From a virus (taxonomy: Duplodnaviria > Caudoviricetes): DNA of 64,000 bases. Numbering within the stretch: the first letter of the stretch is position 1; each line of letters begins with the position of its first letter. The position numbers and the translations under genes were made by a program. The notes under the pieces are model-generated. The model searched no databases, was not told the origin of the DNA, and was given only the letters and a program-made list of their open reading frames with translations. Positions 3,786-38,591 of this stretch are shown piece after piece. Location of the stretch: positions 1 to 64,000 of IMG/VR virus record IMGVR_UViG_2974796443_000001. One strand, 5' to 3'.

Positions 3786-4385
3786 ATGAAACACCTAATC
3801 CTAATTGCCTTAAGTTCTCTTCTGTTCCTGTCTTGTTCTAAAGAAGAGCTAACTACCGAAACCTTATTTGAGTATAACTCTAATCAACCAACCGTAATTA
3901 ACGTAGAAGTGATTCCTACCGAAGACGTAACTCTAAACTTTGCTGAAATGGAATACGTGGTTAACTCCGAATACTTCCACCGTTACGGAATTCACTTAAA
4001 CCTTGTTGAGTCTGCCCGAATCGAATTAGATGAGAGAATAACCGACGGTCCTCAAATCTTCCTACCTTTCGATACTGACCGAGACGTAGTTAGGAACCAC
4101 ATCAAAGTATATGTGTTGTCTGAAGATAATATAAACTTCTGGGGAAGTCCTTCTGGTTATGCAATGGTAGACCAGCTTAATGTGATGATTCGGGAAGACG
4201 TCCAAACAGAACGAACTGTTGCACATGAAATAGCTCACGTCTTGGGTCTTGGTCATAACGACACTAAGGGAAATATGATGACCGAGAAAGTTGCCTTGGG
4301 TAGCTCGATAGTATATGACTTTACCGAGGAGCAAGTTGCTATAATGATGGCAACGATAGCTGACAGAAACCTTAACACTAAATAA
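3786..4385 (+). CDS. lipoprotein metzincin-type zinc metalloprotease
   Basis: Lipobox LFLSC; HEIAHVLGLGH followed by Met-turn NMM. Confidence 0.85.
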   Translation: MKHLILIALSSLLFLSCSKEELTTETLFEYNSNQPTVINVEVIPTEDVTLNFAEMEYVVNSEYFHRYGIHLNLVESARIELDERITDGPQIFLPFDTDRDVVRNHIKVYVLSEDNINFWGSPSGYAMVDQLNVMIREDVQTERTVAHEIAHVLGLGHNDTKGNMMTEKVALGSSIVYDFTEEQVAIMMATIADRNLNTK

Positions 4386-4419
4386 GACTTATATCCAAAC
4401 CCCTTTAAATATATCACAC

Positions 4420-5409
4420 ATGGAAAATACATTAATTGAAAAACTTAGTAAACTACTTAAGAAAGCTGAATCAGCTAAGGAGCTCGGGTCTCTTGACGAA
4501 GCGAACATGTTTATGGCTAAGGTGCAGGAACTATGTACTAAGCACCAACTGGAAATGTCTGAAGTACGTGACTTCAATGAGAAGCCTAAAATAACTACTA
4601 CTCGAGAACAAGCTAAAGCATATAACGAGAAACACGGATATGGATATGGTCACCCTGACCGTAAAGCAGCTTCTGCTATTGACTGGCAGACTAACGGGCT
4701 TGAAGGACATTGGAACCTAACCTTAATTGATATCCTAGCTGAGCACAATTTATGTAAAGCTTTATTCGGACAGACTTACGCCACGAGTACGCTAATCGGA
4801 ACTGAGGATAATATCGAAATCGTTAAATACTTATATGCGGTAATAAAACCAATTATCCTTGACCTCGCTAAAGCTGAGTGGAAGAAAATGGTGAAAGACA
4901 TGAAGGAGTCCTTCGTTGTTTGGTCTTCTCCAGATTCTAAACTAACTGCTATGTCTAAGCGGAAAATGTTGACTGAGGAAATGGATAATAAGTTTAAGTG
5001 GAACGACTGGGTATATGACCAAATGGAGATCGATACTAAAGCTGAACCTGCTCCTAATGGTGATGTGCGATGGTGGAGAGCTGATATAAACCGTCTTCTC
5101 CCTAATCGAACTAATTGGATTAGAGCTTATTGCCAAGGCGCTGCTGAGGGTATTGATTATAAGTTACACAAAGATAAACGTGAAATGGAGCAATCGTTAA
5201 GAGAGCAAGTTGAGGGTCTAATAAAAGTTAATGACGCTGAGCTAAATGCCTACTACGAAGAGAACTATAAGAATGTTGGTACCACTCGTAACCCTACTGC
5301 TAACGAACCTGCCTACGCTAAGGCAAAGGGTTATGAGTCAGGTAAAACTATATCGTACGCAAGAGGAATGTCTTCAGGTAAGACAACCGCAACTAAGCAA
5401 CTTAAATAA
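4420..5409 (+). CDS. DUF2786-like domain protein
   Basis: N-terminal IEKLSKLLKKAES..EA..FMAKVQEL..KH signature. Confidence 0.7.
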   Translation: MENTLIEKLSKLLKKAESAKELGSLDEANMFMAKVQELCTKHQLEMSEVRDFNEKPKITTTREQAKAYNEKHGYGYGHPDRKAASAIDWQTNGLEGHWNLTLIDILAEHNLCKALFGQTYATSTLIGTEDNIEIVKYLYAVIKPIILDLAKAEWKKMVKDMKESFVVWSSPDSKLTAMSKRKMLTEEMDNKFKWNDWVYDQMEIDTKAEPAPNGDVRWWRADINRLLPNRTNWIRAYCQGAAEGIDYKLHKDKREMEQSLREQVEGLIKVNDAELNAYYEENYKNVGTTRNPTANEPAYAKAKGYESGKTISYARGMSSGKTTATKQLK

Positions 5410-5840: not shown

Positions 5841-6209
5841 TCTATTAGGAGCGTTCTCCAAACGCCCGTTGAAATACAATTGTCAAAAGAGAGCTGGATA
5901 TATACTCCATCAACTTTCCCAAAGAGAAATAGATACAATAGACTTTATCTTAAAGGAACTGAATCTTATCTTCGAACTAATGAAGCTCTCATCTTATTAT
6001 ACCTTGCAGATAAATTTGATACCTATGTTAATCTAACTTGTTTGATGAACCACATAGGTTATGCTGACACTGCTGACTCTCGTCGATTGATGAGTTATTC
6101 GTTCTTAAATGTTAAACAATTTCTTTTGATTTTAGATAACTACTTGCTTGAGTTCAACCACGGTGACCAAGTAAGATTAATAAACAAGAACGATTATGTA
6201 CACCATTAA
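5829..6209 (+). CDS. divergent OmpR/PhoB-type winged-helix protein
   Basis: LRTNEALILLYLA..L..IGY..SRR.M pattern resembles Trans_reg_C. Confidence 0.5.
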   Translation: MFKHSIRSVLQTPVEIQLSKESWIYTPSTFPKRNRYNRLYLKGTESYLRTNEALILLYLADKFDTYVNLTCLMNHIGYADTADSRRLMSYSFLNVKQFLLILDNYLLEFNHGDQVRLINKNDYVHH

Positions 6210-6390
6210 AGAATTACAATTTGTCTTACTATTCGAGGTCTTCACTTTCGATGACATGGATAACTGGCAAGCAGCTGTTCATTCCTTATTCAACTTGTTT
6301 CCTAAGTTATATTCGACGGATGAAATAGATACTATCTTTATGTTAGCTCAGGAAAAGTATGACTCCCTAATATATACCTTAGATGAATAG
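6196..6390 (+). CDS. hypothetical protein
   Basis: 64-aa ORF with overlapping junctions. Confidence 0.6.
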   Translation: MYTIKELQFVLLFEVFTFDDMDNWQAAVHSLFNLFPKLYSTDEIDTIFMLAQEKYDSLIYTLDE

Positions 6391-6811
6391 TGTTAGAGAG
6401 ATACTAAGCCAATATATAGATCAAGAGCATCTACTTAGTAAAGCCGTTTCTGAGGTAACCGAGTTCTATTCAATTAAATTTGAAGACTTTGAATTTAATC
6501 TATTTAGTGATGAGGTTCCTGTAAAGTTTTATAAATCAGGAGGTAAGAGCTCAATGGAATATAAGAAGTTTCATAAGATAGGTATTATACCTCAAATGTT
6601 TATGATCTTAGCTAAGTCTCCTGAGAAGCCTATATCCAAAGTGAATTTAATAAAAACTATTTGGGGTTCCTATGATAAGTACATTGATAATTCATTTAGG
6701 GTACAAATAGGATTTATGAAAAAATTACTGAAAGATAACAATTCTCCTTGGCGTATTGATACCTCTAAAATAAATCAAATTAAATTTACCACCTCTAATG
6801 AATCAGATTAA
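6383..6811 (+). CDS. OmpR/PhoB-type winged-helix DNA-binding protein without receiver domain
   Basis: MFMILAKSPEKPISKVNLIKTIWG..NSFRVQIGFMKKLL. Confidence 0.7.
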   Translation: MNSVREILSQYIDQEHLLSKAVSEVTEFYSIKFEDFEFNLFSDEVPVKFYKSGGKSSMEYKKFHKIGIIPQMFMILAKSPEKPISKVNLIKTIWGSYDKYIDNSFRVQIGFMKKLLKDNNSPWRIDTSKINQIKFTTSNESD

Positions 6812-7208
6812 GAAGAATATTATTAAGAAGTACCTTCCTGACTTTGTATATAGTACTACTAAGTCCGTTGAAGTAACTCCAGATCAACTAAGAGACATGA
6901 TGGAAGATTATCATGGTAAGATGCATAATGCTGCTCTAACTCTAAAGATGACTGAGAAGACTCCTATCTTCCATTTTGAAAATTGGGAGACAGGAAATGA
7001 ATTGGAATACACGGATATCAGATGTAAAAAAGAAATCGGATTTACTTTCTCTGAGATCAAAGCTTCCATGGAACTATTCTATCCAAATGACGATATAGTT
7101 TATTTCACCTCTGATATAGGAGGTTTGAATTTAATAATAACCCACGAGCCTGAAGGGTACACTATTTATAGAGTGCTTACTAAAACTCACGATACTGCAG
7201 GTTATTAA
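6798..7208 (+). CDS. hypothetical protein
   Basis: 136-aa ORF. Confidence 0.65.
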   Translation: MNQIKKNIIKKYLPDFVYSTTKSVEVTPDQLRDMMEDYHGKMHNAALTLKMTEKTPIFHFENWETGNELEYTDIRCKKEIGFTFSEIKASMELFYPNDDIVYFTSDIGGLNLIITHEPEGYTIYRVLTKTHDTAGY

Positions 7209-32871: not shown

Positions 32872-35792
32872 TGGCGTTAACAAATTTAGGTAAAACAGGT
32901 TTAAATTTAAGGGAGCAAGACTTACTAGATAGAATACTAGTAGGTTCGACCGACCCTAGTGGAGTTGTTTCTTCTAATATAGGAGACTTATACTTAGTAC
33001 CTTCTATTCCTGACCTATTTATTAATATGGATGGAATAACAACTTGGAAGAATATTTCTTCTTTAGTTGAGTTAGAGGTTGATGATTCTACCTACAATAC
33101 ATTACAGAAAATAGTAGATAAGTTAAAAGCTTCTGAATTAGCAATATCTGATATACAAGTTTCAGACATAGCTGACTTACAAGACTACTTAGATAATCTA
33201 AGTGTAGCCGACATACAGAATTTACAACCTGCACTAGACAATAAGGTAGATAAGGTAGCGGGGAAAGGTCTAAGTACTAATGACTTCACTGTAGCTTATC
33301 GTAATGAAGTAGACTCCAATACAAGTCATCGAAGTAGAACAGATAACCCTCACGGTGTTTCTAAGTCCCAAGTAGGGCTAGGTAATGTTAATAACACTTC
33401 TGATCTTAGTAAACCTATCAGTACCTTACAACAAGCTGCTTTTACCGCTAAGGTAGATAAAGTGACAGGTAAGGAATTATCTGATAATAATTACACTGAC
33501 GAGGATAAGTCTACTGTTATTAATGCGTCTTCTCATATGGATGCTGAGAATAATCCTCACGGGGTCACTGATACTCAATTAGGATTAGGTACAGGTCACT
33601 TTAGACCGCCTGTTTCTGACTTGACTGAACTAGCTGCTTTGTTAGAGGAGGAACTACTTAATAATGAAAGGCGTTATGTAACATCTGAAAATATTGATTA
33701 CTTCTTCTCAACAACCGCGACCTCAGGTGACGTATCTCCTGACGATCAGACCTTAGGGACAGGATTCTGGACTAAAGCGACTGCTGGAGTTGAAGATGTA
33801 TATACTAAAGCTGAGTCCGACGCTAAGTATGCAGAGATAGGAGATTCTTTTACTAAATCTGAGTCTGATGCTAAGTACTCTCTTACTTCACATACTCACC
33901 TCATTGCTGATATAACTGACTTCACTGATAACTCTACTGACTGGGACACTGCTTTCGGTTGGGGTAATCATAATTCTCAAGGTTATGTAGTTGTAGGAGT
34001 GGCTTCAACTGAAAATAATTTAGTACTATGGGATGCCTCAGGTAAAATAACCGATGCAGTAGGTCTTAGTTGGTCTGCAAGTTCACTTTCTGTTACAGGA
34101 GCTATCTCAGCTACTGGTGCAGGTGTATTTGGGAATGTTCAAGTTTTAGACGTTCCGTATGACGAGTCATCTTGGAATGGAGCTTTAACTGTTCCTACTA
34201 TGAATGCTATTCGAGATTGGATAGTAGGTTTTTCTGTTTCCGATATTAATGCAACAGGAACTGCCTCAGCTTCTACTTACTTAAGAGGAGATGGGGTATG
34301 GGCTACTGTAACCGCTTCTGCTGCTTGGGGAGCTATCTCAGGTACTTTAACTGATCAAACGGACTTAGTCGCTAAATTCGGGGAGTACTTACCATTATCA
34401 GGTGGTACAGTAACAGGTAATCTATTCGCACCCTCTTTTAGGGTACAAGGCACAGGCACTGGTATATCAAATACAGGAGTCCTAGCTGTCTATGAATCAG
34501 ATGGTACAACTAGACAAGGTTATATAGGGTTTGGTAGTGGTTCAAGTTCAGATTTTATCTGGTACAATGACGTAGGAACAAACTATTTAAGACTGTTAGA
34601 TGACGGTGGTGCAAATGGTTTATTCTATAACTATTCTGGAGGTAGTGGTGCTGTATACCATACAGGTAATAGTAGTGGTTTAGTAAATACAGGTTCAGCA
34701 ACTCAAACTAAAACTGGGGGATTAGCAGCACAGACATTAACAACTACAAACTCAGGGGATGGAGCAACCTTACTCACATTCTCTACCGAACGTCCTTGGA
34801 GGTTCGTCCAAATTGGTACTGGTTCAGGAGCAGTGCTAGGGTTGCAGGATTTAAATGGTTCTAAGAGCTTTAATATAACAGACCCATCTGGAAATAGAAA
34901 TCACTCTTTTGCATCATCAGGTAATTATGACCTAACTGGTGATATAAAAATGAGTAAAGAGAAGCCGATTTTGACTCTACATAGTACTAAGAATGGAAAC
35001 TGGGTAGAGGGAGAGACATTGTCGGAAATTATTTTCTACGGAGCTGACGGTAGTAGTAATGGTGCAAATGACAGAGGAGCTATAAAATTAAGCTCGTATG
35101 ACGTATTTGGAATAAGGTTTAATATGGATTTTTATACATCCAGTAATGCAGACCCTGAGTTGGCTATGCGTATTGGTTATGATAAAAACGTGACAATAGT
35201 AGGCGATCTCACAGTAAGTGGTGATAATATTATCATGGATGATGTCAATAATAGAGTAAAATATGCTGTATGGAATACCTCTGGTACGTTCGGTATTGGG
35301 ATGGGTGCGTCATATACCTACGGAGGTTTAAATGATTTTGCTATGACCTTCCAAATGAACAGTTCATCGACTCGTGGATGGTGGTGGGGAACTGATTCCC
35401 ACTCTAACGCACAAGGGTCGATGTCATTAACTACAACTGGAGTGTTAACAGTTGCTAGTTCGGTAACGGCTACTAACTTTATCTTGTCCTCTGATAAGAG
35501 ACTAAAAAAGAATATTAAAACCCTTAGAGGAGATGACTTAGATTTAAGATGGGTACAGTTTAATAGAATAGATGATGGGTCGTTTCAATTAGGTCTTATA
35601 GCGCAAGAGGTTGAAAAAACTAATCCTGAATTTGTCCTAACAGATAAAACAGGATTTAAATCAGTTAAGTATATAGATGTTCTTATTGCTAAAATGGCAG
35701 AGAAGGATAGAAAAGATAGGGATAAGGACGCTAAGATAAAGTCTTTAGAAACTAGAGTATCTAAATTAGAGAAATTCTTAAATCTTAATTAA
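32871..35792 (+). CDS. tail fibre protein 2 with C-terminal S74 intramolecular chaperone
   Basis: SSDKRLKKNI...GLIAQEVE..P; NPHGV repeats; YLPLSGGT. Confidence 0.9.
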   Translation: MALTNLGKTGLNLREQDLLDRILVGSTDPSGVVSSNIGDLYLVPSIPDLFINMDGITTWKNISSLVELEVDDSTYNTLQKIVDKLKASELAISDIQVSDIADLQDYLDNLSVADIQNLQPALDNKVDKVAGKGLSTNDFTVAYRNEVDSNTSHRSRTDNPHGVSKSQVGLGNVNNTSDLSKPISTLQQAAFTAKVDKVTGKELSDNNYTDEDKSTVINASSHMDAENNPHGVTDTQLGLGTGHFRPPVSDLTELAALLEEELLNNERRYVTSENIDYFFSTTATSGDVSPDDQTLGTGFWTKATAGVEDVYTKAESDAKYAEIGDSFTKSESDAKYSLTSHTHLIADITDFTDNSTDWDTAFGWGNHNSQGYVVVGVASTENNLVLWDASGKITDAVGLSWSASSLSVTGAISATGAGVFGNVQVLDVPYDESSWNGALTVPTMNAIRDWIVGFSVSDINATGTASASTYLRGDGVWATVTASAAWGAISGTLTDQTDLVAKFGEYLPLSGGTVTGNLFAPSFRVQGTGTGISNTGVLAVYESDGTTRQGYIGFGSGSSSDFIWYNDVGTNYLRLLDDGGANGLFYNYSGGSGAVYHTGNSSGLVNTGSATQTKTGGLAAQTLTTTNSGDGATLLTFSTERPWRFVQIGTGSGAVLGLQDLNGSKSFNITDPSGNRNHSFASSGNYDLTGDIKMSKEKPILTLHSTKNGNWVEGETLSEIIFYGADGSSNGANDRGAIKLSSYDVFGIRFNMDFYTSSNADPELAMRIGYDKNVTIVGDLTVSGDNIIMDDVNNRVKYAVWNTSGTFGIGMGASYTYGGLNDFAMTFQMNSSSTRGWWWGTDSHSNAQGSMSLTTTGVLTVASSVTATNFILSSDKRLKKNIKTLRGDDLDLRWVQFNRIDDGSFQLGLIAQEVEKTNPEFVLTDKTGFKSVKYIDVLIAKMAEKDRKDRDKDAKIKSLETRVSKLEKFLNLN

Positions 35793-36247
35793 TGGCAGTT
35801 CCAAATACTACTACCTTTACCTTAGCTAATGTATGTGACGAAATAGGACTAACAGGTTCTAATAGAACTTTACAGTCATGCTTCAATTCAGCTGAATCTA
35901 GAGGTTATAATTCTAGTTACTCAGGCTCTAAAAACTCACTACTGAATTTTCGAGACTACGAGACTCCTTCGACCGCAGATATCTTATCAGTTAACCCTAC
36001 TACCCATTCTAATACCTCAGGATTTACTGACTCATTTGTAGTTTCTGTTACCTCTAATACCTCATGGACAGTCTCAGATAATCAGACTTGGATTACCTTA
36101 TCCTCTTCGTCAGGCTCAGGTAATGGAAGCATCACTGTGAACCTATCTTCAAATGGGACAGGTAGTACTAGGTATGGTGTCGTAGTCTTCACTACAGGAG
36201 ATATTACTAGAACAGTTACTGTAACCCAAACAAGTAATTTCTCTTAA
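35792..36247 (+). CDS. BACON-domain virion protein
   Basis: VTSNTSWTVS..WITLS..SGSGNG..N....R.G.V...VTVTQ. Confidence 0.85.
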   Translation: MAVPNTTTFTLANVCDEIGLTGSNRTLQSCFNSAESRGYNSSYSGSKNSLLNFRDYETPSTADILSVNPTTHSNTSGFTDSFVVSVTSNTSWTVSDNQTWITLSSSSGSGNGSITVNLSSNGTGSTRYGVVVFTTGDITRTVTVTQTSNFS

Positions 36248-36323: not shown

Positions 36324-36521
36324 ATGGAAGAGAGATTTAAAACTATTACTGACCTATTACTACTAGCAGGTGTCCAGTCCACTCCTATGGTGTTGGAGTT
36401 AATAGAGAACGTAACAAAAGAATTTGATGATAAGGGGGATAAAGTCACTCTTAAAGATATCAGAGACTTAAAGACAATGGTGGAAGACAAGTACACTAAG
36501 AAAGAGGAAGCTGCAAAATAA
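36324..36521 (+). CDS. small hypothetical protein
   Basis: ATG 36324. Confidence 0.6.
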   Translation: MEERFKTITDLLLLAGVQSTPMVLELIENVTKEFDDKGDKVTLKDIRDLKTMVEDKYTKKEEAAK

Positions 36522-36546
36522 TTAGCACTTTCTACAATTGCTTAAT

Positions 36547-36993
36547 ATGGTTGAAATATTATATGCTTATTTTTCGTTACCTTTAGAAATAAGAGTTGAA
36601 GACTCTTTAGTGAATGGGGGTATCATAGGAGCGGTTGTAACTCTAATCCTAGCTATTATTAAACTTGGGGATAAATACTTATCTAAGTATGTTGACTCTA
36701 AGAGAGATGTTGATATCAAAAGATTAGAGTTACAAGCTGACTCTGCCGAAGTGGCGGTTCTTCAGAACAACTACCAAGAAGCATTAAATATTATAGCTGA
36801 GCTCAAATCAGAAAAAGTTGATCTAGAAAGTAGATTATTGGTAGTAGCAGATAAAGAGAGAAAAACATTCACTAAGTTAAATTCTATTATTATCTCTTTT
36901 GATATAGTGTACGATCAGTTAGAAAGAATTTTCGAACCTGGAGACCCTAACATGGCTTTACTTAAGAAATACAAATACTACATAGACAAATGA
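36547..36993 (+). CDS. holin-like single-TM/coiled-coil protein
   Basis: TM GGIIGAVVTLILAII plus coiled coil; upstream of the endolysin. Confidence 0.5.
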   Translation: MVEILYAYFSLPLEIRVEDSLVNGGIIGAVVTLILAIIKLGDKYLSKYVDSKRDVDIKRLELQADSAEVAVLQNNYQEALNIIAELKSEKVDLESRLLVVADKERKTFTKLNSIIISFDIVYDQLERIFEPGDPNMALLKKYKYYIDK

Positions 36994-37859
36994 TACTACA
37001 AGAACATAATATGGATTCCTTTGAATCCGCTGCTCAGATGAATATGGACGGCATGGTCTGTTGGCTAATGGATGCCGAAATAGCCCGAGACATGTTCATC
37101 GCAAATATCGTAATAGGAGTTTCGTACTTCGTTATATCGGGATTGTTAGTTTTATTAGCTAGAACTACTTGGGACTTATTATCTAGGTCATTTAAATTGA
37201 ATTTAGGATTGTTCTCATTCTTTATACTATTTTGTGGGATAGGTCATATTATCAAAGTCCTTAACATCTGGGAAGGTATGTTTAGGTTGGAATTAGCAAT
37301 AGATATTGCAACTGCAGTAATCTCTGTAATTGAGGCTGTTTTCCTAACCTACGGTATGAGAAGATTCACTAGTAAGGTAAAATTAAATAAATCTATCTTT
37401 GACTCTAATTTCAAAGACGTCTTAGTTCTTACAGGAGTTTTAGCGCTTAAGAACAAAAAGCCAACTACTGCTTTGAAGAGGAATACCTTAGATAATAAAA
37501 CAGTACTTGATATTCTTTTTGGCAAGTCTGACTTATCTAAATTATTCTTTTACGATTTAGAAAATATAATATTTAATTACGAATTTGTTATAGGAGGTTT
37601 AAAAGTAATTAGAAAGACTCAACCATCTGAAGGAACTTATTTAGTTATTAAAACAACTGAAGCTCAAGAACTTAGCGGGTTTACTATTGTAGACTCTAAT
37701 ACTTGGATTTATTGTGATAAAGGAAGTTTTGTTAATTTACCCTTAGATAAAGTAGTAGGGGTTAATTCTTACTCTCATCACTCTAAGAATAAAGTTATTA
37801 AAATTAGTATAGCTGCTAATTCTCAATTACGTATGTATTTTAGTAAATCAAAAATTTAA
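36990..37859 (+). CDS. ETR1-like (ethylene-receptor N-terminal) 3-TM domain plus soluble C-terminal domain
   Basis: ANIVIGVSYFVI / FFILFCGIGH / DIATAVISVIEA align with ETR1 TM1-3. Confidence 0.7.
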   Translation: MILQEHNMDSFESAAQMNMDGMVCWLMDAEIARDMFIANIVIGVSYFVISGLLVLLARTTWDLLSRSFKLNLGLFSFFILFCGIGHIIKVLNIWEGMFRLELAIDIATAVISVIEAVFLTYGMRRFTSKVKLNKSIFDSNFKDVLVLTGVLALKNKKPTTALKRNTLDNKTVLDILFGKSDLSKLFFYDLENIIFNYEFVIGGLKVIRKTQPSEGTYLVIKTTEAQELSGFTIVDSNTWIYCDKGSFVNLPLDKVVGVNSYSHHSKNKVIKISIAANSQLRMYFSKSKI

Positions 37860-37862
37860 GTT

Positions 37863-38459
37863 ATGATATATAAACCTATGTTTGATAATGGTCACGGAAG
37901 TGTGATCAATGGTATCTACCAGACTCCAGGTAAGAGGAGTCCTAATTGGGAATGTGGTACTGTATATGAGGGTCAATTAAACCGAGTTATTGTAAACGGG
38001 GTAATACGACTATGTATGTTGAATAATATTCCGTACTACCATGTTTCACCAGAGCTAACTGATGTTGGTTTAGATGCTAGAGTAAATAGAGCTAATAAGA
38101 TTTATGCTGTAGATAGAAGTGCTTACCTTTTATCTATTCACTTTAACGCTGGAGGTGGAACTGGGATTGAGGGCTTTACTTCTAAAGGAGAAACTAAATC
38201 CGATCCTATCTGTAATCTATTTCTAAGTAACTACGAGGAAGTTGGTGAGAAGATGAGGTATGACTACTCCGATGGAGATAAGGATAAAGAAGCTGGGTAT
38301 TATGTTCTAACCCGTACAAACTGTCCTGCTGCTTTGATGGAACTAGGCTTTATGGATAATAAAGCTGATTACCTAAAGATGTGGGACACTGATCATTTAG
38401 ACAAACTTATTAACTCTACGTTCAAGACGGTTGAGCAGTTATATAGAGGAAGTCTTTAA
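37863..38459 (+). CDS. endolysin, N-acetylmuramoyl-L-alanine amidase (Amidase_3)
   Basis: DNGHG, E, SIHFNA, ELGFMDN zinc-amidase motifs. Confidence 0.92.
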   Translation: MIYKPMFDNGHGSVINGIYQTPGKRSPNWECGTVYEGQLNRVIVNGVIRLCMLNNIPYYHVSPELTDVGLDARVNRANKIYAVDRSAYLLSIHFNAGGGTGIEGFTSKGETKSDPICNLFLSNYEEVGEKMRYDYSDGDKDKEAGYYVLTRTNCPAALMELGFMDNKADYLKMWDTDHLDKLINSTFKTVEQLYRGSL

Positions 38460-38552
38460 ACCTTTTTAAGAGTTTTGACCCCTCGTTTGGGGCAAAGCTC
38501 TTTTATTTTCCTAAAACACTGCCTTAGAGCCTGAAAACACCCTTAAACAAGG
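38452..38552. repeat. dispersed intergenic element
   Basis: TTTGGGGCAAAGCT (38486) with phased arms on both sides. Confidence 0.8.
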
Positions 38553-38591
38553 TATTTCGCTCGTTTGGCGATTTTTAAATTCAAAAACCTT

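Follow-up and report, generated by a model that had tools for sequence, protein, structure and literature searches.

The endolysin operon of a phage of the flavobacterium Maribacter encodes a membrane protein, gp063, that carries a true ethylene receptor (ETR1)-type domain with an intact CxxxH site. The gene lies in a stretch of 64,000 nucleotides (nt), here called the window, which comprises positions 1 to 64,000, the left half, of the 124.7-kb virus record IMGVR_UViG_2974796443_000001 in IMG/VR. The window is 96.5% identical at the DNA level to Maribacter phage Colly_1 (Mollyvirus, Molycolviridae; North Sea origin), the host of which is Maribacter forsetii DSM 18668. Directly upstream of gp063 is the gene for a second membrane protein, gp062, and directly downstream is the gene for a soluble amidase endolysin, gp064. 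From its sequence and its genomic setting, gp063 probably helps to time or carry out host lysis.

The ETR1-type domain of gp063

ETR1_N is a three-helix domain that binds copper and ethylene; the copper ligands of ETR1 are Cys65 and His69, which form a CxxxH motif in helix 2. The Pfam profile of this domain, PF25487, matched residues 36 to 125 of gp063 with 60.9 bits (E, 1.5e-16; cutoff, 27), covering profile positions 7 to 93 of 97. When the profile was used for a six-frame search of the genome, a single place was returned (37095 to 37364; 63.2 bits; E, 2.3e-18). The helices were located at residues 38 to 50, 74 to 88, and 104 to 116, and an AlphaFold2 model based on an alignment of 150 sequences showed three long helices across residues 30 to 130, with predicted local distance difference test (pLDDT) values of 92 to 98. 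No other Pfam domain was found in the 289 amino acids (aa) of gp063, neither a kinase nor a GAF domain being present.

When 1.84 billion representative proteins were searched exhaustively with phmmer, 720 relatives of gp063 were identified at an E value of 1e-3 or lower, and the best 150 of these were aligned. Word-index homologue searches, performed with the protein and with the alignment of the phage clade described below, returned almost no matches, unlike the exhaustive search. Tyr46, Cys82, and His86 of gp063, the counterparts of Tyr32, Cys65, and His69 of ETR1, were invariant in the best 150 relatives (150/150), and C24, I49, F75, F78, I79, G83, T108, and S112 were conserved in at least 90% of them. 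The residues of the ligand site were the same across the phage and the cellular members of the alignment. It is thereby confirmed that gp063 contains a true ETR1-type domain in which the CxxxH site is intact, and the likeness is not due to chance. The Cys82/His86 site probably holds Cu(I). A first-pass annotation of the window, made from the DNA letters and their translations, had proposed this ETR1-like domain and its copper ligands. The profile match and the conservation of the CxxxH motif bear that proposal out, and its three helices and residues N39, Y46, I49, S50, I79, C82, and H86 had been correctly placed and numbered. It was also right that gp063 contains no histidine kinase or GAF domain.

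Searches of known structures were less informative about gp063. Its sequence found nothing in the PDB, and comparisons of its model by Foldseek and VIA-align returned helical bundles of a generic kind along with mixed beta folds, with no ETR1 membrane-domain chain among the PDB matches. The charge counts (K+R/D+E) were 1/7 at the N terminus, 3/1 in loop 1, and 5/1 after the third transmembrane (TM) helix. The predicted topology is receptor-like, with the N terminus in the periplasm and the C-terminal domain in the cytoplasm.

Seven residues of ETR1 are listed for ethylene binding, reportedly by Wang 2006, and all seven are required for binding (PMC11819568). Five of the seven are kept in gp063 (Tyr, Ile, Ile, Cys, and His), with Y46, I49, and I79 at the positions of ETR1 Y32, I35, and I62, and six are kept in most members of the phage clade, which have the Pro as well. 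The P36 position is Ser50 in gp063; among the best 150 relatives, it is Ser in 25/150 and Pro in 108/150. The Asp25/Lys91 pair of ETR1 is replaced by Asn39/Asp105. This polar pair, with one position in helix 1 and one in helix 3, covaried strongly in the 150-sequence alignment (D/K in 55 sequences, N/D in 40, and N/N in 11), in agreement with the Asp25-Lys91 coupling already published (PMC10266040), and the Asn/Asp type also occurred beyond the phage clade. One-third of the aligned ETR1_N proteins (50/150) were shorter than 200 aa, i.e., had no output domain.

These residues bear on whether gp063 could be a true receptor for ethylene or another small unsaturated ligand, in which case ethylene of algal origin, or formed photochemically in bloom water, would alter the conformation of gp063 and thereby shift the time of lysis or the burst. 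Such a role would overlap with either of the lysis functions weighed below. It would be in keeping with the five binding residues of gp063 and the six of most clade members, and with a host that is a bloom-associated flavobacterium (PMC8776804). Among 1,221 ethylene-binding domains, Asp occupied the Asp25 position in 93.55% and Asn in 3.67%, and Asn is a natural minority variant there that is still functional in ETR1 (PMC10266040). Against this stand the values in PMC11971883 and PMC10266040, in which the D25N change lowers the ethylene affinity of ETR1 about 100-fold and leaves no detectable binding in a yeast assay. In addition, the Lys91 position is an Asp in gp063, and ligand specificity cannot be read from a sequence. 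We regard an ethylene receptor as a decidedly improbable identity for gp063. The copper site looks intact, and high-affinity ethylene binding is doubtful because Asn39/Asp105 replace Asp25/Lys91 and D25N weakens ETR1.

The phage clade and its C-terminal domains

Together with gp063, the ten best matches other than gp063 itself, plus P0016 and P0030, grouped as a monophyletic clade (12 tips; support, 0.985). The common features of this clade are a periplasmic N-terminal motif, which reads C-W-L-M-D in most members, and the Asn/Asp pair. Its members occur in a short form of 124 to 172 aa, consisting of the membrane domain only, and a long form of 266 to 301 aa. All of the clade members other than gp063 come from metagenomic contigs, on which the neighbors that PHROG can name belong to phage tails or virions. 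Scanned by pattern, neither IMG/VR nor a set of 185,579 reference genomes of bacteria and archaea yielded a member of the clade. When three ETR1_N queries were compared by tblastn with 50,697 GenBank phage records, Colly_1 was the only match, and BFVD had no entry beyond gp063 itself. By these searches the clade is so far phage-only, and the first description of the domain as one taken from the host found no backing in the reference prokaryote genomes.

The C-terminal domain of the long clade members is, as judged from its profile, a true cupin. The profile matched PDB entry 3d82 (E, 4e-6), quercetinase cupins, and the anti-sigma protein ChrR (3o14; E, 0.019), and the sequences carry the cupin motifs HxH..E..G and P..H. 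No fusion of ETR1_N to a cupin was found in the literature searched. In gp063, the domain at the same position has neither the HxH..E..H metal ligands nor the cupin motifs, and its comparison with the cupin profile of the relatives was not significant (hhalign probability, 0.1; hmmsearch, -0.2 bits). There were weak leads toward a cupin, namely, a language-model assignment to Cupin_2/Cupin_7 clusters (0.77) and Foldseek matches with E values of at least 5e-3, in which a few cupins appeared among mixed beta folds. The model of the domain contains seven beta strands between residues 198 and 284 and is of moderate confidence (pLDDT, 40 to 77). A degenerate cupin is plausible for gp063 by position and is unproven. 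The corresponding suggestion of the first-pass annotation stood in part: the cupin is real in the long relatives, and the gp063 domain itself had no detectable similarity to it.

The gp063 C-terminal domain has been kept by selection, along with the genes around it. Every codon of this domain that differed from Colly carried a synonymous change (12/12), as did 31/34 in the whole of gp063, the other 3 being nonsynonymous. The differences were also exclusively synonymous in gp062 (12/12; the protein is identical) and in gp064 (21/21). Purifying selection on these three proteins is strong.

The endolysin unit and the partner protein gp062

The features of the endolysin unit are listed in Table 1. 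The four genes are ordered gp061, gp062, gp063, and gp064, with the tail-fiber and BACON-domain genes on the 5' side and the terminase genes on the 3' side (start of the large terminase subunit, 39076). The stop codon of gp062, ending at 36993, overlaps the start of gp063 at 36990 by 4 nt (ATGA), and 3 nt separate the end of gp063 (37859) from the start of the amidase gene (37863). The open reading frame (ORF), the overlap, the gap, and the amidase neighbor were as first described. Translation of gp063 could equally well begin at an in-frame Met8 (37011), since the relatives align from residue 8; its use would leave a 17-nt gap after gp062 and no overlap. For gp062, an alternative start is the TTG at 36538.

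Table 1. Features of the endolysin unit (window coordinates)
Feature	Position	Strand	Description
gp061	36324..36521	+	65 aa, soluble; first gene of the four-gene unit; coding sequence annotated in Colly_1
gp062 (partner protein)	36547..36993	+	148 aa; N-terminal TM helix and charged coiled-coil C-terminal domain
gp063 (ETR1_N-type membrane protein)	36990..37859	+	289 aa; annotated in Colly_1 as "hypothetical protein"
ETR1_N domain of gp063	37095..37364	+	Residues 36 to 125; three TM helices; Pfam PF25487
Cys82 codon of gp063	37233-37235	+	
His86 codon of gp063	37245-37247	+	
C-terminal beta-rich domain of gp063	37485..37856	+	Residues about 166 to 289; predicted cytoplasmic
gp064 (N-acetylmuramoyl-L-alanine amidase endolysin)	37863..38459	+	Soluble
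Two terminator-like hairpins	38489-38501 and 38557-38571	+	Close the unit ahead of the terminase genes

The gp064 protein matched Amidase_3 (PF01520; E, 2.8e-13) and the endolysin family phrog_435 (E, 2.7e-27), and neither a signal, a signal-arrest-release segment, nor a TM segment was detected in it. The gp061 protein had no Pfam or PHROG match and no TM segment, and no homologue of it was seen in the related loci. The only membrane proteins of the window's endolysin unit are gp062 and gp063. In the description of Mollyvirus (PMC8776804), the amidase is the sole lysis gene listed for Molly, and ethylene is not mentioned. The BACON-domain protein that follows the tail fiber (35792-36247) differed from that of Colly at 11/151 residues, and gp062 and the amidase differed at none, a pattern that fits a fast-evolving host-contact protein beside conserved lysis genes. 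Elsewhere in the window, an ORF suggested to encode an orphan OmpR/PhoB-type DNA-binding protein (6383-6811) had no PDB sequence match (phmmer; E of 0.01 or lower), and its identity is unconfirmed.

The TM helix of gp062 spans about residues 20 to 38. In 8 loci, representing 7 distinct places, the gene immediately preceding that for ETR1_N encoded a homologous protein of 118 to 149 aa, with one TM helix and a coiled coil, and this gene usually overlapped the ETR1_N gene. Locus L011 was an exception, in that the upstream gene encoded a three-TM protein. The members of this partner family have a common C-terminal motif resembling P-E/D..L-I..K-I-E, which is also present in gp062. Two distant phage ETR1_N proteins, L015 (70% GC; 6001-6938) and L017 (61% GC; 6001-6796), are short and have a charged coiled-coil tail of their own, and in both loci a gene for a coiled-coil membrane protein comes next and overlaps the ETR1_N gene. 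This arrangement indicates that the pairing of ETR1_N with a coiled coil recurs well outside the clade.

Although gp062 had initially been called holin-like, it matched no holin or antiholin family in Pfam or PHROG and gave only weak, scattered PHROG matches. Its architecture, an N-terminal TM helix followed by a coiled coil, fits that of an i-spanin, and the partner family weakly matched three Rz-like spanin PHROGs, with a best E value of 8e-4 for one member and values of 0.02 to 0.035 for other members. No o-spanin or lipoprotein ORF embedded in or adjacent to gp062 was found in the window; the candidate arrangement of an i-spanin with an embedded o-spanin was rejected for want of such an ORF. 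By the positive-inside rule, the partner proteins were predicted to be oriented N-out/C-in in 8/8 cases, which would make the coiled coil cytoplasmic. This orientation argues against an i-spanin and places the coiled coil on the same side as the predicted position of the gp063 C-terminal domain.

Hydrolase linkage, a proposed role in lysis timing, and relation to known systems

Of nine loci with readable downstream sequence, four contained a peptidoglycan hydrolase gene no more than two genes downstream of the one for ETR1_N. These hydrolases belonged to three unrelated types, Amidase_3, Peptidase_M23, and DUF5675. Next after the ETR1_N gene comes Amidase_3 in the window and Colly and Peptidase_M23, with a 4-nt overlap, in L004/L005; in L006, a 77-aa lipoprotein gene (6903-7136) separates the ETR1_N gene from DUF5675, a C82-like candidate lysin (bioRxiv 10.64898/2026.04.11.717860). 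In L014, the genes downstream encode a 99-aa two-TM protein, a Peptidase_M23 protein, a lipoprotein (6315-6767), and a second M23 protein, in that order. The L014 lipoprotein has a lipobox and a C-terminal TM helix and is therefore unimolecular-spanin-like. The lysis unit of the window has no counterpart to the lipoprotein-like genes of L006 and L014. Two genes upstream of its short ETR1_N gene, L014 also encodes a stand-alone PAS_3 protein (4180-4620; E, 5.6e-11). The L014 contig, at 530 kb, may represent a very large phage or a prophage-bearing bacterial chromosome. The exchange of the hydrolase type behind the same pair of genes is typical of modular lysis cassettes and would be unlikely for an unrelated cargo gene. 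The synteny of the homologues agrees in this respect with the linkage to lysis genes anticipated by the first-pass annotation.

We favor, at about an even chance, a reading of the sequence data in which gp062 and gp063 form an inner-membrane lysis-timing module, with gp063 as a sensor-type regulatory or trigger subunit and gp062 as its effector partner. The membrane step formed by the two proteins would decide when the soluble amidase gp064 gets to the cell wall. In this scheme, gp063 would be an antiholin-like or trigger subunit, and the state of its Cys82/His86 site, probably with Cu(I), would set its conformation. It would act on the translationally coupled gp062 through the cytoplasmic domains of both proteins, and the two would jointly supply the holin function. 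A lysis-related role is probable because gp063, which stands beside a cell-wall-cutting enzyme, has no signaling domain. A regulator is preferred because retention of a cofactor site identical to the one in cellular sensors is not usual for holins and because relatives add sensor-type domains (cupin and PAS), and a partner is preferred because a sensor domain without an output needs one. In two reports that concern plant proteins only, ETR1/ERS1-type receptors are described as cation permeable (bioRxiv 10.1101/2025.10.20.683334; PMC13261662). By analogy, a permeabilizing or depolarizing activity of the ETR1_N fold is conceivable.

Several observations weigh against a gp062/gp063 timing module. 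Like gp062, gp063 has no family that would assign it to lysis: it matched no PHROG family at an E value of 0.1 or lower, hence none annotated for lysis, and no Pfam holin family. At 289 aa it is large for a holin, it has Asn and Asp at the Asp25 and Lys91 positions of ETR1, where D25N lowers ethylene affinity, and the basis of its predicted topology is the positive-inside rule alone. Other proteins could supply the hole. Small two-TM ORFs are present elsewhere in the Molly genome, and small multi-TM proteins in L004, L011, and L014 could be the actual holins. The latter include a family of 120- to 149-aa multi-TM proteins with a His-rich C terminus, encoded just upstream of the pair (L004, 3083-3469; L011, 5191-5553; L014, 3734-4183), which are related to one another by blastp (1e-13 and 4e-3) and are candidate holins; the Molly genome encodes no homologue of this family. 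Finally, no recognized hydrolase gene adjoins the pair in L007, L008, L011, L012, L013, or L018, the next genes in L008 encode virion structural proteins, and L017 has its ETR1_N gene embedded in a Mu-like baseplate module (DNA_circ_N, Baseplate_J, and Mu_Gp48).

The last group of loci would be expected if gp063 had no part in lysis and were instead a late membrane sensor or accessory protein, serving, for example, copper handling, superinfection exclusion, or the manipulation of host signaling, and simply carried along between the tail and packaging genes, with gp062 as an i-spanin-like protein. The weak Rz-like matches of the partner family would suit such a role, as would the position of the genes, since the region after the tail fibers is a common site for cargo genes. 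However, a random gene in a phage of 100 to 200 genes would be linked to a hydrolase by chance at only a few percent per locus, and four loci with three unrelated hydrolase types were found. In the loci without a recognized hydrolase, the small neighbors, which have no assigned family, were mostly membrane or exported proteins, some of them lipoproteins, as in lysis cassettes; the neighbors of the pair in L007 and L018 had no PDB sequence match. The lack of an o-spanin ORF at gp062 and the orientation of the partner family, opposite to that of an i-spanin, also count against this explanation. We consider a role outside lysis unlikely.

It is also possible that gp063 is the holin itself, a class I-like protein built on the ETR1_N fold, in which the Cys and His would be structural or modulatory and gp062 would be an accessory protein of the antiholin or spanin type. 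In the window, its gene immediately precedes that of the soluble endolysin; in L004/L005, the counterpart is translationally coupled to Peptidase_M23. Its three TM helices are predicted to run N-out/C-in, and the window's endolysin unit encodes no other multi-TM protein. In size and shape, the short clade members match class I holins, as do the L015/L017 forms with their charged coiled-coil tail. However, the ligand-site residues are invariant from phage to cellular proteins, whereas holins evolve fast and need no cofactor. The Molly form, moreover, carries a selected 125-aa cytoplasmic domain, L014 encodes its separate two-TM protein between the ETR1_N and M23 genes, and gp063 lacks a PHROG holin match. 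A holin identity for gp063 is thus unlikely on balance but credible. As for what a regulatory gp063 might sense, its Cu(I) site could be a gate for lysis, such that ethylene or another olefin, copper, or a redox change at gp063 would shift the passage of the amidase by way of gp062 and gp063. We consider this gate, read from sequence, quite unlikely.

The timing of lysis is a major life-history trait of phages, and the ETR1 domain is a classic plant sensor of a gas hormone of which few bacterial members have been studied. To our knowledge, there are few cases besides T4 lysis inhibition in which lysis timing is coupled to a sensed signal. In the literature searched, no paper joined ethylene-receptor domains with phages or lysis and no viral member was described, so the statement of the first-pass annotation that no such phage lysis module had been described holds within that literature. 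What is new here is that the phage has been isolated and its host cultured, that the clade joins ETR1_N to a cupin, with a diverged form in Molly, and that the Asn/Asp pair covaries. Since the phage that encodes the intact metal site in its endolysin operon has been isolated, direct experiments are possible with the cultured host M. forsetii DSM 18668. The Asn/Asp variant and the cupin fusions also provide natural variants for the biochemistry of ethylene receptors. If ligand gating were true, gp063 would belong to the first ligand-gated holin/antiholin system and would be the first viral ethylene-binding protein, and a bloom-associated phage would be using a chemical signal from its algal surroundings to time its burst.

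Among known proteins, gp063 is closest in its membrane domain to receptors for ethylene, namely, ETR1 and ERS1 of Arabidopsis, SynEtr1 of Synechocystis, and AzoEtr1 of Azospirillum. It keeps their three TM helices, the Cys ahead of helix 1, the Tyr, Ile, Ile, Cys, and His of the binding site, the same CxxxH spacing, and the Thr/Ser positions of helix 3. The spacing of 19 from the His to the polar residue of helix 3 is equal to that in AzoEtr1 (H79/K98). Ethylene receptors have GAF, PAS, or histidine kinase output domains, whereas gp063 has none; it differs from them further in being encoded by a phage, in an endolysin operon, and in its fusion to a small beta-rich domain that is a predicted cupin in relatives. 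The long clade members match Cupin_2/ChrR-type cupins (3d82 and 3o14), whereas the domain of gp063 has neither their motifs nor significant similarity to them.

Class I holins, such as lambda S105, and the two-protein holin/antiholin sets P2 Y/LysA, Ms6 Gp4/Gp5, and T4 T/RI/RIII are the known lysis systems with which the pair can be compared. Neither gp063 nor gp062 has a sequence or profile relation to known holin or antiholin families, holins have no cofactor site like that of gp063, which is common to cellular sensors, and the Molly form is twice the usual size of a holin. The likeness is one of arrangement. In both cases, small membrane proteins stand beside a soluble endolysin, and in the known sets it is pairs of such proteins that set the timing of lysis. 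Like class I holins, gp063 has three TM helices, a predicted N-out/C-in orientation, and a charged C terminus on the cytoplasmic side.

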